Below are positions 54,517 to 62,154 of a DNA stretch of 64,000 nucleotides, piece by piece. Numbering within the stretch: the stretch's first letter is position 1; the number at the start of each line of letters is the position of its first letter. The notes beneath the pieces were generated by a model. The model saw only the letters and a program-made list of their open reading frames with translations, did not search any database and was not told the origin of the DNA. The DNA comes from an uncultured Gemmatimonadota bacterium (GTDB lineage: Bacteria > JAAXHH01): contig OX638340.1 in the NCBI GenBank assembly GCA_951812955.1, forward strand, positions 3,424,001 through 3,488,000, written 5' to 3'. Position numbers and translations under genes: made by a program.

Positions 54517-55020
54517 ATGGCAAGAATCGTATTTCTTTTAATAGCCACGCTTGTATGCCATAACGCATACGCCCAGTTGGATCTCAACGTGGGAGTGGCC
54601 GGCAGCAGGTCCTATGCCTGTCTCGCAGATCAAACCGATTCGGGAATCGGGATCGGCATTCGCGGTGAAATGGCGGCGGATTTGAACGATCGGTTTCAGT
54701 TCATCGGAAACTTGTCGCTTGAACGGCACAATAGCGATTTCTTGTCCCTCCCGGTCATGGCCGGGTTGAGGGTGTCTACCACATCGGATGACGACATGTT
54801 CTGTTTCGTCCAGGCCACGGGAGGAAGGTCGTACAGGGTCTATGGCGATGAAGACAACCAGTCCGCTTGGATTATGAACGCAGGCATCGGTACGGTGTGG
54901 AACAGGCTGGGCGCGATTGTGGAGTACAATACATCACGCAGCAATGTGTACAATGATGCACGCGATAAGTGGAGTTGGATTTCTGTTCGTACATTCTTAA
55001 GGTTACCACTTGGTTTTTAG
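54517..55020 (+). CDS. small outer-membrane beta-barrel protein
   Basis: Signal peptide MARIVFLLIATLVCHNAYAQ. Alternating amphipathic strands. C-terminal ...RLPLGF (terminal Phe). Confidence 0.6.
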   Translation: MARIVFLLIATLVCHNAYAQLDLNVGVAGSRSYACLADQTDSGIGIGIRGEMAADLNDRFQFIGNLSLERHNSDFLSLPVMAGLRVSTTSDDDMFCFVQATGGRSYRVYGDEDNQSAWIMNAGIGTVWNRLGAIVEYNTSRSNVYNDARDKWSWISVRTFLRLPLGF

Positions 55021-55126
55021 TGTCCATGCCAATACTTAGGGCATAAGGGAAAGGAGTGCATATAGATTGCATACTTTTGTACAAGAGAAGATAGTTAAGT
55101 GCAGTTCTCATCTACGGGAGATACAG

Positions 55127-58692: not shown

Positions 58693-61600
58693 ATGCGCCG
58701 CGCTTCAGGATTCAGGAAATCCACGCGAGTCTGGTGCATCAGAACCCTGGTGTTAGTACTGGCGCTCACTCCGGCGGCCGTCCTGGCGACTTACGAGGAC
58801 GCTGCAGCGCAGACATCGGTGAACCTGACGGTTGAACCCGCTTCCGTTGACGAAAACGGTGGTCCGCAGGTGGTGACTGTACGGGCGACGGTGCGGGACA
58901 CGACCAGCGTGCCGATCGTCATGGCGTTGGCTCCTGTGCTCGAGCAAAGCACAGCCACGTTTCCGGATGATCTTGTCGCATCGCCGCTGGATCAGCCGAT
59001 CGTCATCGCTCCGGGTCAGACTGAAGGTATATTGGAAGTAACCGTTGTCCCTACGGATGACAGTATTTACGAAGGTACGGAGAAGTTCGTCTTCCTGGGG
59101 GTGGGGGTCACCGGTGAACCTTTGACCATGCCTGTATCGGTGGAGATCAACGACGACGAACCGGTGCCGGCCATCACGCTGACCACAACGCCGGATAGGG
59201 TCGATGAAGGCGACGGACCGCAGGTGGGTGTCGTTACGGCTACTGCTTCCGGGCTCAGCGCGACGGACCTTCACGTGGGTCTGGTGCCGCTGCTGGAGCA
59301 AAGTACCGCTACCCTGATCGGACCGGGCGCTGACCTTGGCGTGCTGGAGTTGGAGTCAGATCCGAACATCGTGATTACAATCCCCGCGGGACAGCCGACA
59401 GGGAGTATCAATCTGACCGTCGTTCCGGTGGATGACGAGGTATATGAAACCAACGAGTTTGCCCTGTTCGCGGGTAATCTGATGGGAACGATAAGCGAAC
59501 CGGTCGCAATCACGATCGTAGACGACGACACGCCGGACATTGTATTTAGCGGCGTTCCGACCGCGTTGCGTGAGGACGGCGGTGCTCAGACGGTATCGTT
59601 CGATATCGAGATGTCCGGAATCGCAGTTCCGATTCCGACCGTGATCACGCTGAACATGACCGGTACGGCTACCCAGAAAACAGACTACGACTGGGACGGA
59701 ACCTCGGAAATCGTCATTCCTGCCGGCGAGACGTCGGCGGGCACACAGATAACCTACACGGTGGTGAACGATGAAGTCTATGAACCAGAAAACGAGACGA
59801 TCGTGGTGACAGCTAGATGGGGATTCTCTGATCTCGGCGTTGTCTCGTTGACCATCATTGATAACTATTCGGCTCCGGCGGTCGCCAACCCGATTCCCGA
59901 TGTGAACCTGATATCGGGCGGCGTCTTTCGCGTCGACCTATCCTCCACTTTTTCCGGCAAAGACCTGACCTTCTCGGTGTCCGCCTCGGGCAATGCGATT
60001 TCGGCTGAACTATTGGACACCTCGCTTGTGGTCTCCGCTAACCGCCTGGGTTCGGGCCGCGTAACGGTTGCCGCGACCAACGCCGCCGGTTCAGTCAGTT
60101 ACAATTTCGGCGTGACCGTCACGGCGTCCTTCACCCTGAACGTCAATCCGGATACGTTTCGTGAAGACGGCGGTACTCAGACGGTGTCTTTCACGATCGA
60201 GCTGTCCGGCACCGCGTTTTCGGTTCCGACCGTAATTACGCTGGATGTGGCCGGTACGGCCACCCGGGGTACGGATTACATACTGAGCGGAAACGCGGAG
60301 ATCGTCGTTCCCGCCGGTGAATCGTCTGCAACCACGCAGCTGGACTTCTCGGTCGTGGACGATGCGGTCTACGAGCCGGACGACGAGACGATCGTCGTAT
60401 CAGCGATCTGGGACGGAGGCGAAATAGACATCGTCACGCTGACGATCGTCGATAACTTCCCGGCTCCGGCGGTCACGGGTGCGATTTCTGACCTGACCCT
60501 GGAAGCGGGCGACTCCAGTCAGACCGACATAGCCGGCAGTTTCTCGGGCAAGGGCCTTGCCTTCTCGGCCTCGTCCTCGGGCGACGCGGTATCGGCTGAA
60601 ATCTCGGGTTCGACGCTCTCGGTCACGGCCAATCGCAAGGGTTCGGCCCGCGTTACAGTTCTCGCGACCAACGATGCGGGTTCCAGCAGTTTCGACTTCG
60701 GCGTGACCGTAACGGCGATCAACGAAGAGCGGATGGTCTACACCGACATCCTGGCGGCCATGGGTCGAGGCATTTTGTCGAGCGTGTCCAACACGATTGG
60801 CGGACGATTCGCAATATCCGACGCCGAACGCGGTATCGCTTTAGGCAACAGGCGGGTCGATGGCATAGCGTCCGGTCTGGAAGCCCTGATCAGCCTGGGC
60901 GATACGCGGGAAGCGAGTAAGTACGGTATTTCCGACGAATCCATGGCGCAGACTGGCAGGCAACCCGTTTCCGCCCGCGAGCTGATGCGGGGCACGTCCT
61001 TCTACTACGCCCTTGACGACGCACCGCAGAGCGCCAGTACGGACGGCCTGAGCTTCACGGTATGGGGGGCCGGAGACTGGAACGCTTTTAAGGGTTCGGC
61101 TTCGCAGACCGCTACCTACGACGGATCGTTGATTTCCGGATACCTCGGAATGGATGTTGCGAAGACCGGCGGCTGGATTGGCGGTGTGGCCGTCGGCCGT
61201 ACCATGGGCTCTTCGGATTACGACGTAACGATCTCGGACGGGAAGTTGGAAACCACCCTGAACAGTGTATATCCTTATGTGTTATGGCACGTTCCCCAAT
61301 ACGTCATCGAGGTCTGGGGTGTCGGTGGTTTCGGTACGGGTGAGGTCAAAACGAATGAAATGACCAGCGATCTGTCCATGCGAATGGTCTTGATTGGCGC
61401 ACGCTCGCAGTTGGCCGGAACCACCACCGAAGGGTTGGACCTGGACCTGATCGGCGACGCGGGCTTTGCCAGACTGTCGGCCGCCGAAAGCGAATCCGCT
61501 TCACTGAACGAACTGGACGCCGGCATACATCGGGTACGCATCGGTCTCGAAGGTTCCGGGACCATGCAAATGGACAACGGCATGCTCGCAACGCCGTTCG

Positions 61601-62154
61601 CCCAGGTGGTTGGCCGGTATGACGGTGGCGACGGTCAGACAGGGGGCGGCCTCGAGGTTGCCGGCGGTCTCCATATCGCCGCCGGCAGGGCCGGGGTCGA
61701 AGCGCGCGGTCGCCTGCTGGCAACGCACTCGGGCGACGAGGTCACGGAGCACGGAATGTCGTTGGCTGCCTACATAAAGCCGATGGAAGCCGGCGGGCGA
61801 GGTTTTTCGATGTCAGTCGTTCCCCGGATCGGCGCCGATACAGATATGACCGGCGATATGTGGCGCGAAGAGCCGATGGAGGATCTCACGCGGTCGTCCC
61901 GTACGGGCGTCGGTGTGAAGGCTGAAATCGGCTATGGCCTCGCGCATTCCGCCATGAGCGACATCCTGGTGACGCCCTTCGGTGCGATGGACATGACCGG
62001 TGATGACCGTAGCCGCATGCGCCTGGGCGCGCGATTCGGATCTGTCGGCAGCGCGGCCGGCATACTGAGCCTGGAACTTGCCGGAGAGCGCATAGATAGA
62101 CATGGCGTGACGCCCGACCACCGCATCGGCCTGATCGGAAGGATGAGTTTCTAA
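58693..62154 (+). CDS. large surface protein: multiple Calx-beta domains + Ig-like domains + C-terminal autotransporter-like beta-barrel
   Basis: 1153 aa. Signal peptide. At least 4 Calx-beta motifs (DDSIYEGTEKFVF, DDEVYETNEFALF, NDEVYEPENETIVV, DDAVYEPDDETIVV). Repeated NPIPDVNL...VTVTA Ig-like units. C-terminal ~450 aa Gly/aromatic-rich barrel-like region ending ...GLIGRMSF (terminal Phe). Confidence 0.7.
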   Translation: MRRASGFRKSTRVWCIRTLVLVLALTPAAVLATYEDAAAQTSVNLTVEPASVDENGGPQVVTVRATVRDTTSVPIVMALAPVLEQSTATFPDDLVASPLDQPIVIAPGQTEGILEVTVVPTDDSIYEGTEKFVFLGVGVTGEPLTMPVSVEINDDEPVPAITLTTTPDRVDEGDGPQVGVVTATASGLSATDLHVGLVPLLEQSTATLIGPGADLGVLELESDPNIVITIPAGQPTGSINLTVVPVDDEVYETNEFALFAGNLMGTISEPVAITIVDDDTPDIVFSGVPTALREDGGAQTVSFDIEMSGIAVPIPTVITLNMTGTATQKTDYDWDGTSEIVIPAGETSAGTQITYTVVNDEVYEPENETIVVTARWGFSDLGVVSLTIIDNYSAPAVANPIPDVNLISGGVFRVDLSSTFSGKDLTFSVSASGNAISAELLDTSLVVSANRLGSGRVTVAATNAAGSVSYNFGVTVTASFTLNVNPDTFREDGGTQTVSFTIELSGTAFSVPTVITLDVAGTATRGTDYILSGNAEIVVPAGESSATTQLDFSVVDDAVYEPDDETIVVSAIWDGGEIDIVTLTIVDNFPAPAVTGAISDLTLEAGDSSQTDIAGSFSGKGLAFSASSSGDAVSAEISGSTLSVTANRKGSARVTVLATNDAGSSSFDFGVTVTAINEERMVYTDILAAMGRGILSSVSNTIGGRFAISDAERGIALGNRRVDGIASGLEALISLGDTREASKYGISDESMAQTGRQPVSARELMRGTSFYYALDDAPQSASTDGLSFTVWGAGDWNAFKGSASQTATYDGSLISGYLGMDVAKTGGWIGGVAVGRTMGSSDYDVTISDGKLETTLNSVYPYVLWHVPQYVIEVWGVGGFGTGEVKTNEMTSDLSMRMVLIGARSQLAGTTTEGLDLDLIGDAGFARLSAAESESASLNELDAGIHRVRIGLEGSGTMQMDNGMLATPFAQVVGRYDGGDGQTGGGLEVAGGLHIAAGRAGVEARGRLLATHSGDEVTEHGMSLAAYIKPMEAGGRGFSMSVVPRIGADTDMTGDMWREEPMEDLTRSSRTGVGVKAEIGYGLAHSAMSDILVTPFGAMDMTGDDRSRMRLGARFGSVGSAAGILSLELAGERIDRHGVTPDHRIGLIGRMSF

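Follow-up and report, generated by a model that had tools for sequence, protein, structure and literature searches.

Analyzing a window of 64,000 nucleotides (nt) from the genome of an uncultured Gemmatimonadota bacterium (GTDB lineage JAAXHH01; GenBank assembly GCA_951812955.1, contig OX638340.1, forward-strand positions 3,424,001 to 3,488,000), we found a neighborhood of envelope genes in which a small outer membrane protein (OMP) is followed by two predicted lipoproteins with collagen-like stalks, one bearing an immunoglobulin (Ig)-like head and the other a trypsin-fold serine protease head, and then by a giant autotransporter-like protein. We think it probable that the stalked lipoproteins form a conserved neighborhood acting at the cell surface and that the autotransporter next to them is a separate, non-obligatory neighbor. 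The building blocks are of known kinds, and databases name such proteins "collagen-like protein," "trypsin-like peptidase domain-containing protein," or "hypothetical." What appears to be new, with no characterized counterpart found in the literature, is the architecture of the protease (lipobox, collagen stalk, and PDZ-less HtrA-like head with a conserved tail), the presence beside it of a cassette-like stalked Ig protein, and a previously undescribed RNA motif, a candidate structured RNA, between their genes. A characterized collagen-trypsin fusion of any kind was likewise not found in the literature.

A first-pass annotation of this DNA had proposed four consecutive genes for envelope or surface proteins, and all four open reading frames (ORFs) are indeed present on one strand, each with an export signal and with a Shine-Dalgarno-like sequence upstream (Table 1). 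The same annotation had placed the cluster downstream of lptD, which is not the case: lptD lies on the minus strand, and the cluster is therefore divergent from it and not 3' of it. For the collagen-Ig gene an alternative start exists, a TTG at 55067 that would give 510 amino acids (aa), and the ATG used here is better placed.

Both lipoproteins follow a common plan, in which a hydrophobic signal, a lipobox Cys, and Glu lead directly into an uninterrupted run of Gly-X-Y (G-X-Y) triplets (junction C-E-G), followed by a globular head. The collagen-Ig protein has 38 triplets, including Asp-rich GAD repeats, its stalk DNA is built of tandem 9-bp repeats, and it matches Pfam Collagen with 61 bits (cut-off 27.2). 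The protease protein has 13 triplets and scores 25.0 bits (E 1.6e-5), slightly under the same cut-off, and the domain is recorded in most of its homologs. These matches and the unbroken triplet runs bear out the earlier call of collagen-like segments in two lipoproteins. A further claim, that the two begin with near-identical signal, CEG lipobox, and GPAGPAG segments, is right for the C-E-G junction and the GPAGPAG repeats, which both have (73% nucleotide identity over 74 nt), and wrong for the signal peptides, which differ. Lipoboxes were judged from the sequence motif, with [LVI][ASTVI][GAS]C as the criterion. The protease protein has VLAC, and its Cys17 and the first stalk glycine, Gly19, are invariant in 29 homologs; the collagen-Ig lipobox, SMYGC, is less typical and is kept as [MVL][YLM]GC in homologs. 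An LPXTG anchor is not present in the collagen lipoproteins, which have the N-terminal lipobox instead.

Stalk length varies widely within the protease family, from 8 to ~92 triplets among the GTDB loci, while the head after the stalk keeps a constant 285 to 290 aa. Collagen rises ~0.29 nm per residue, and by this standard geometry stalks of 13, 38, and ~92 triplets would, if triple-helical, reach ~11, ~33, and ~80 nm. Stalks as long as ~80 nm are hard to reconcile with a periplasmic location. A monomer AlphaFold2 (AF2) model of the protease leaves the stalk unstructured and has a short helical segment after it. The overall design is like that of bacterial collagen-like surface proteins, such as Streptococcus Scl1/Scl2, Bacillus anthracis BclA, Legionella Lcl, and Pasteuria Pcl, which also set a globular head on an uninterrupted G-X-Y stalk of variable length, show repeat-number polymorphism, and have variable heads implicated in attachment. 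Unlike these proteins, the lipoproteins described here have a predicted lipidated Cys right at the start of the stalk, not an LPXTG or exosporium attachment, and they carry an Ig-like module or a protease as the head. The NCBIfam models for Scl1, Scl2, and Lcl match them through the repeats only, with 23 to 68 bits against cut-offs of 325 to 500.

The repeats also affect gene calling. The GC-rich DNA encoding the collagen segments (55112-55583 and 57339-57766) is open in several frames on both strands, with ORFs of 89 to 152 aa, and public gene calls of relatives split or shorten the collagen genes. Short, collagen-less database versions of the collagen-Ig protein were considered as true truncations and set aside as gene-calling artefacts: P0197 starts at an internal GTG, an artefactual N-terminus, and a gene call at 7758-8000 in the closest relative (L002; related loci are given by L numbers) is a wrong reading frame of the repeat DNA.

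The head of the second lipoprotein matches Trypsin_2 (PF13365) over residues 88 to 258 and along the full profile (1 to 144), with 45.3 bits against a cut-off of 27.6. Its triad is intact, with H104 in WTNVH (TNxH), D157 in SPDVALL, and S244 in TSGSLIF (TSGS). Across the 29 aligned homologs (50 to 84% identity), D157 and S244 never vary and H104 gives way to Arg in just two; beyond a variable linker, the C-terminal tail, DYPHxxYxPFPxNWNGETxLP, is also strongly conserved. The AF2 model, computed from this alignment, has an average predicted local distance difference test score (pLDDT) of 60.7 and a predicted template modeling (TM) score of 0.64; the N-terminal barrel reaches a pLDDT of 70 to 87, and the stalk and tail are unmodeled. 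With this model, the best Foldseek matches in PDB were the protease domains of HtrA1, Deg5, DegP, DegS, and mycobacterial HtrA, and chymase (E 4e-9 to 1e-7), all of the double beta-barrel chymotrypsin fold, with TM scores normalized to the target of 0.55 to 0.68; a sequence search with the family profile matched Deg1, Deg5, HhoA, and DegQ. The His/Asp/Ser trypsin-like peptidase domain read from the sequence at first pass is thus confirmed by the Trypsin_2 match, the intact triad, and the HtrA-like fold.

By family models, this head stands apart from its closest structural relatives. No PDZ domain was found with Pfam or NCBIfam, just ~45 residues lie beyond the protease domain, and the model of the Do family, TIGR02037, gives 14.1 bits against a cut-off of 416. 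Judged from sequence and structure model together, the head resembles an HtrA-type protease domain, yet it lies outside the HtrA/DegP (Do) family. It is like the HtrA/Deg enzymes (MEROPS S1C; DegP, DegS, HtrA1, and plant Deg5) in its chymotrypsin fold, its His-Asp-Ser triad, and its predicted extracytoplasmic location, and Deg5 is likewise without a PDZ domain. Unlike HtrA/Deg enzymes, it combines a lipobox and collagen-like stalk with a family-specific conserved C-terminal tail, and it is PDZ-less. HtrA-type protease domains work as trimers, a symmetry that would match a three-chain stalk. The protease-head family is small, with 599 of 1.84 billion 50%-identity representatives matching at E <= 1e-3 and 55 at E <= 1e-30.

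Two short sequences lie upstream of the protease gene. A patch at 57234-57288, ~130 to 180 nt before the start codon, is 85 to 91% conserved and is also present in L007, which is without the lptD context; the patch therefore travels with the protease gene, and it is a possible promoter or 5' untranslated region (UTR) element. An AT-rich sequence of ~45 nt at 57008-57053, single-copy in the window, occurs five times in L007 (1449, 2241, 2989, 6489, and 9362) and also in L003 (9323-9373) and may be a small dispersed repeat.

The Ig-like head of the partner lipoprotein has diverged far more than its surroundings. It matches Big_1 weakly (E 0.01 to 0.016), and its homologs comprise proteins of 43 to 74% identity together with distant Big_2-rich proteins; one close homolog matches Big_2 weakly. 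The Big_2-like domains proposed earlier for this protein can thus be kept as Ig-like, on weak Big_1 matches (E ~0.01), and Big_2 itself is matched in homologs only. Across orthologous loci the Ig-like head is 31 to 48% identical, as compared with 70 to 83% for the protease head, 68 to 97% for the small OMP, 67 to 94% for LptD, and 90 to 97% for a thiolase encoded beyond lptD. In L002 the head is of a different type altogether. The left flank of L002 is 91 to 99% identical to the window in DNA up to the collagen repeats (window position 55365), identity is nil over 55366-56654 (L002 7933-9082), and it returns at ~80% from 56655 over the RNA motif and the protease gene, reaching 87% past a 4.0-kb indel described below. 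Just a Big_2 motif aligns between the two heads (E 0.002), and the L002 head type shares 47% identity with that of a paralogous gene in L053. This mosaic pattern fits a head swap by recombination between conserved flanks, with exposure to diversifying selection.

The RNA motif occupies an ORF-less, lower-GC gap 3' of the collagen-Ig gene. It is ~90 nt long and has 92 to 96% nucleotide identity in relatives, as compared with 76 to 81% in coding DNA, and most positions of its 3' part (~55 nt) are invariant. RNAalifold folds it into a short hairpin, a long, GC-rich one whose internal loop (UUAGUAGGAGCUU...) is conserved, and a U-tract. A covariance model finds one copy behind every collagen-Ig-type gene, including both genes of convergent pairs (L006, L061, and L062), L015, and the diverged L053, and nowhere else in 1.17 Mb. 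Compensatory changes are seen in 9 of 23 pairs, and 97.6% of cells pair, as compared with 36 to 45% with slid partners, in an alignment that was itself fitted to the model. No Rfam 15 family matches the motif at gathering thresholds, the best permissive matches having E values of 0.26 to 9. Most simply, its sequence and fold suggest a 3' UTR or terminator element of the collagen-Ig gene; possibly it is a processed small RNA. Its terminator-like form argues against read-through into the protease gene.

The fourth gene encodes a giant whose N-terminus reads MRR...LVLVLALTPAAVLATYEDAAA, followed by Q, and whose C-terminus reads ...GRMSF. The whole protein matches Calx-beta (PF03160) with 30.7 bits against a cut-off of 27. 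In per-domain scans, three of the four Calx-beta-like modules match this family weakly (E 3e-4 to 0.017), the second matches LapA only, and the remaining two sandwiches are Big_2/PKD-like. The Autotransporter family (PF03797) is matched by the C-terminal 477 aa alone with 28.8 bits against a cut-off of 26, and by the whole protein with 20.3 bits, under that cut-off. Among the 27 members of the giant family, Calx-beta is found in 22 and Autotransporter in nine (best E 8e-13). The AF2 model (overall pLDDT 67) has six beta-sandwiches at residues 41 to 675 (pLDDT 75 to 88), helices at 676 to 764, and long antiparallel strands at 787 to 1117, the last 130 residues being unreliable; PDB sequence searches with the giant and with its family profile were uninformative. 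The Calx-beta modules, given as four or more at first pass, and the C-terminal barrel ending in Phe, also noted then, therefore stand, the former through the above-cut-off match and the four Calx-beta-like and two Ig-like sandwiches of the model, the latter through the match of the C-terminal 477 aa and the terminal Phe. The passenger appears to grow and shrink by modules: a 591-nt internal duplication corresponds to one Calx-beta and one Ig unit, and homologs range from 1104 to 1835 aa via gain and loss of passenger modules, with a conserved C-terminus, HRIGLxGRMSF.

Taken at the level of sequence and model, the giant would be an autotransporter-like adhesin with a non-beta-helical passenger. 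It is like type Va autotransporters (NalP, Hbp, EspP, AIDA-I, and EstA) in its Sec signal, PF03797 beta-domain, and C-terminal aromatic residue. Calx-beta modules are calcium-binding, and the giant is like other Calx-beta adhesins in carrying them in tandem. Sponge aggregation factors contain 2 to 14 Calx-beta domains (PMC5400394) and share this tandem arrangement; unlike them, the giant is bacterial, is anchored by its own predicted barrel, and has no Wreath or VWA domains. Since sponge aggregation factors are made of Calx-beta domains, host mimicry or contact by the giant is conceivable, and any interaction with host factors is speculation.

The giant is not a constant companion of the stalked lipoproteins. 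In blastn comparisons, window segments 58400-58440 and 62458-64000 are directly joined in L002, and both loci continue with a hybrid sensor kinase gene, which in the window starts at 62881 and is cut off by the window's end. This clean 4.0-kb segment, with its flanks joined in L002, shows that the giant gene is an indel and therefore not a fixed member of the cluster. It adjoins the protease gene in 4 of ~17 orthologous loci (the window, L007, L009, and L015), and in L032 and L045 a paralogous protease gene has an autotransporter-barrel gene nearby.

Table 1. Features of the stalked-lipoprotein neighborhood (window coordinates unless another locus is named; nt, nucleotides)
Feature	Coordinates	Strand	Basis
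lptD (LptD_2 family), context gene	51315..53801	-	Pfam LptD_2, E 8.8e-51; neighbor kept in orthologous loci
Sigma-70-like promoter TTGACA-17-TATACT, then ~320-nt leader to OMP start codon	54164..54192	+	Consensus scan, 11/12
Small OMP, 167 aa	54517..55020	+	ORF; OMP_b-brl in 6/12 orthologs
Collagen-Ig lipoprotein (predicted), 490 aa from ATG	55127..56599	+	Pfam Collagen, E 9e-17
Collagen-Ig, lipobox Cys18	55178..55180	+	
Collagen-Ig, 38 G-X-Y triplets	55184..55525	+	
Collagen-Ig, Ig-like head, 360 aa	55517..56596	+	
Structured RNA motif, terminator-like	56738..56834	+	92-96% nt identity; RNAalifold fold; covariance model
Collagen-stalked serine protease lipoprotein (predicted), 344 aa, GTG start	57418..58452	+	Trypsin_2
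Protease, lipobox Cys17	57466..57468	+	
Protease, 13 G-X-Y triplets	57472..57588	+	
Protease, trypsin-fold domain	~57631..58320	+	
Protease, H104	57727..57729	+	
Protease, D157	57886..57888	+	
Protease, S244	58147..58149	+	
Protease, conserved C-terminal tail	58387..58449	+	
4.0-kb segment with giant, not in L002	58441..62457	.	blastn flanks abutting in L002
Autotransporter-like giant, 1153 aa	58693..62154	+	ORF; Calx-beta and Autotransporter matches
Giant, signal peptide	aa 1-40		
Giant, Calx-beta-like modules	58813..59160, 59161..59535, 59536..59871, 60130..60465	+	
Giant, Ig-like modules	59872..60129, 60466..60720	+	
Giant, helical linker and predicted beta-barrel, terminal Phe	60721..62151	+	
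RNA motif copy in L001	8009..8105		
RNA motif copy in L002	9160..9256		
RNA motif copy in L062	1407..1503	+	
RNA motif copy in L062	2431..2528	-	
RNA motif copy in L053	2278..2399		

Mapping the protease family among genomes, we found 320 homologs in a word-indexed search, nearly all with both Collagen and Trypsin_2; the few that are named are Gemmatimonadetes or Latescibacterota proteins from metagenome-assembled genomes (MAGs). Among GTDB species representatives we located 58 loci, mostly in MAGs labeled Latescibacterota or Gemmatimonadota, and several genomes have three or four protease paralogs. Some MAG names point to sponges (IRC, COS, APA, and SB06) and one to a coral (Plut), an assignment that rests on the names and on an inferred name-to-host mapping, with the IRC, COS, and APA prefixes fitting hosts reported in PMC8163846. 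The source bacterium is marine and probably sponge-associated. Collagen-protease genes also occur in bins of unrelated phyla, labeled Dehalococcoidia (L039/L054, contig CBDHFB010000005.1) and Spirochaetia (L036, L042, L057, and L058), and L039 keeps the lipobox-CEG junction and the C-terminal tail. Such copies may have arisen by lateral transfer between co-resident symbionts, or a 38-kb contig may have been mis-binned.

The gene order is also conserved. Thiolase, lptD (minus strand), small OMP, collagen-Ig, RNA motif, and collagen-protease follow one another in two metagenome contigs and a dozen GTDB loci, and the OMP, collagen-Ig, and collagen-protease genes are syntenic in no fewer than 13 genomes at species level, which are MAGs labeled Latescibacterota or Gemmatimonadota and in many cases have names that suggest sponges or corals. 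L053 has a paralogous copy of the module (collagen-Ig, RNA motif, and collagen-protease), with 39% protease identity. In the window, the gap from the collagen-Ig gene to the protease gene is 819 bp; in L001 (at 8325-9839), L004, L010, and L011, a DUF4403 gene (~500 aa) separates the RNA motif from the protease gene. A DUF4403 pseudogene in the window's gap was considered and rejected, as it gave no tblastn signal.

The small OMP at the head of the cluster has a signal peptide ending in AYA before Gln, two invariant Cys, an invariant STTSDDDMFC motif, and the C-terminus ...LPLGF, and it is 71 to 94% identical to 11 orthologs. Neither Pfam nor NCBIfam matches the window copy, and a profile of the family finds no match among PDB sequences. 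OMP_b-brl (PF13505) matches 6 of 12 orthologs (best E 2.6e-6). The earlier designation of this gene as an OMP barrel is likely from its orthologs, the signal peptide, and the terminal Phe, and not from any Pfam match of the window copy; the protein is a putative outer membrane beta-barrel of the 8-stranded type. Both hexamers of the promoter-like site before it are invariant in nine genomes. Of the ~320-nt leader, the 5' end and the 3'-terminal ~165 nt are conserved and the middle is variable and prone to indels; the leader has no Rfam match. Conserved blocks in the lptD/OMP intergenic region lie at 53860-53965 and 54150-54516 (+), and an invariant stretch in this region reads AATCTAAGG...GCGAAAGCGTTTCGTCTC. 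Another 167-aa gene, located upstream of a paralog in L064, was compared with the small OMP and is not homologous to it.

How might such a neighborhood work? Under the reading we favor, both collagen lipoproteins would be exported by Sec and lipidated at the invariant Cys, and their G-X-Y segments would trimerize into rigid rods rooted in the membrane by three lipid anchors. The rods would hold trimeric heads off the cell surface, an Ig-like binding head that would bind a ligand and an HtrA-like protease head that would cut extracellular, host-matrix, or envelope proteins; the giant would be a type Va-like protein of the calcium-dependent-adhesin type, inserted next door. A surface location is favored because the stalks are variable and long, the partner head is hypervariable, the window is rich in surface and eukaryote-like proteins, and bacterial collagen-like proteins offer a precedent. 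Several points weigh against this reading. In diderm bacteria the default orientation of lipoproteins is toward the periplasm, which is also the usual site of HtrA-type proteases. With no hydroxyproline, a run of 13 triplets may barely suffice for a stable triple helix, and the quality of the protease model is moderate. Such serine proteases usually have Gly two residues ahead of the nucleophile, as part of the oxyanion-hole motif, and here this position is Leu in the window and Arg or His in close orthologs; taken with the Arg that replaces the catalytic His in two homologs, this means that activity may be altered. Many protease paralogs stand alone, with no collagen-Ig partner. Finally, a few MAGs seem by their names (SI07x and CSSed) to come from seawater or sediment, so the family is not strictly confined to hosts, and a host-specific role need not be assumed.

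Periplasmic quality control of the envelope would account for some of these points. The protease would then be a lipid-tethered, HtrA-like housekeeping enzyme on a collagen spacer or ruler, serving outer membrane biogenesis together with LptD and the small OMP, an explanation that we regard as unlikely while giving it appreciable weight. It draws on the nearest folds and profiles (HtrA, Deg, DegP, and DegS), on the kept synteny with lptD and the OMP gene, on a 13-triplet stalk whose ~11 nm fit the periplasm, and on a default lipoprotein topology that is established knowledge. However, PDZ domains are the substrate-sensing element of HtrA proteases, and this protease has none; the same family has stalks of up to ~92 triplets; the partner head is hypervariable and replaceable, as is typical for exposed proteins; and the family itself is tiny and lineage-restricted, not universal, with paralogs in unrelated contexts. 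Doubts about catalysis lead to another alternative, in which the head is a dead pseudo-protease retained as an adhesion-only binding module. The unusual oxyanion-hole residue and the two homologs with Arg in place of His speak for it, but the window copy has His, Asp, and Ser in place, and conservation of this triad at 50 to 84% identity (Asp and Ser invariant, His nearly so, in 29 homologs) argues for selection on catalysis. Moreover, the SGS[PL][IV]F motif appears to resemble that of active V8-type enzymes. We thus consider loss of catalysis improbable.

The first-pass annotation had united all four genes in one co-expressed apparatus for adhesion and proteolysis. The genes are consecutive, on one strand, and all equipped with export signals; the four-gene order recurs in L009, the giant adjoins the protease gene in L007 and L015, and autotransporter-barrel genes lie near paralogous protease genes (L032 and L045). 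Yet the giant gene is a 4-kb indel relative to L002, none is found within 10 kb at most orthologous loci, and a separate promoter-like site precedes it. Between genes 2 and 3, the conserved terminator-like hairpin, the 819-bp gap, and the DUF4403 gene inserted there elsewhere argue against a single operon. We therefore retain from this proposal a plausible envelope or surface role and a syntenic three-gene core, and we give little credence to a single four-gene apparatus. Least probable is that the collagen-like genes are remnants of prophage tail fibers. PHROG tail-fiber families match both proteins, with E values down to 6e-31, but nearly all these matches are confined to the G-X-Y repeats, each protein carries a lipoprotein signal, phage genes are absent from the surroundings, and synteny beside lptD and the thiolase gene is stable in many genomes. 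A prophage origin was rejected, as the PHROG matches are due to the repeats.

A bolder version of the surface reading, which we rate as a long shot, is that the stalked lipoproteins act as a recognition-plus-protease pair, a bacterial counterpart of collectin/C1q and their proteases, with heads renewed by cassette exchange between the 5' signal/collagen sequence and the 3' RNA motif. The variable Ig-like head would recognize a host or competitor ligand, and the stalked protease, co-assembled or co-clustered with it via collagen, would cut the target; the RNA motif might also be a regulatory or processing element. Collectin/C1q systems (MBL-MASP and C1q-C1r/C1s) combine collagen stalks and recognition heads with trypsin-fold proteases, and the short helix after the stalk seen here is like a collectin neck. 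The likeness is by analogy, homology not being shown: unlike in collectin/C1q systems, the protease is fused to its own stalk, the proteins are bacterial and predicted to be lipid-anchored, and association of the two stalked proteins is hypothetical.

Elsewhere in the window, three paralogous Big_2 and leucine-rich-repeat (LRR) proteins with long DNA repeats in common are encoded at 36168-37343, 38894-43750, and 43907-45514 (+). The 1618-aa member also bears a Peptidase_M66 (StcE-like) domain, and these proteins resemble eukaryote-like surface proteins reportedly found in sponge symbionts. Three paralogous hybrid GAF-PAS-histidine kinase-receiver-Trans_reg_C proteins, 48 to 53% identical to one another, are encoded at 26211-28613, 46414-48807, and 62881-64000 (+), with one paralog on each side of the region from the thiolase gene and lptD to the cluster. 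A family of intergenic repeats of ~70 to 130 nt (38395-38461, 38579-38645, 43819-43885, 45753-45879, and 49237-49364; …GTTAT..GTAACAGTCGGAG…TCTCGAAC TTTTTT…) precedes several genes, including LRR genes and the thiolase gene. Tandem repeats occur at 10124-10333 (30-nt unit), 20165-20224 (15 nt), 25955-26071 (17 nt), and 37908-38087 (33 nt), and the 17-nt array overlaps the 3' end of the ORF at 25099-25965 and reaches into the gap before the kinase gene starting at 26211. No tRNA gene and no Rfam family at gathering thresholds was found within the 64-kb window.

Symbionts of sponges and corals are uncultured, and how they attach to and remodel the collagen-rich matrix of their hosts is an open question. 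A survey of ~1200 sponge MAGs reported no classical collagenases (PMC8163846). If our favored reading of surface-exposed stalked lipoproteins is true, a lipid-anchored, probably trimeric stalked protease beside a fast-changing stalked binder would be a testable candidate for host-matrix contact or protein foraging, and it would represent an uncharacterized HtrA-like design in which a collagen stalk replaces PDZ domains. If the protease is periplasmic instead, its stalk would be a novel "ruler" design for an envelope protease.

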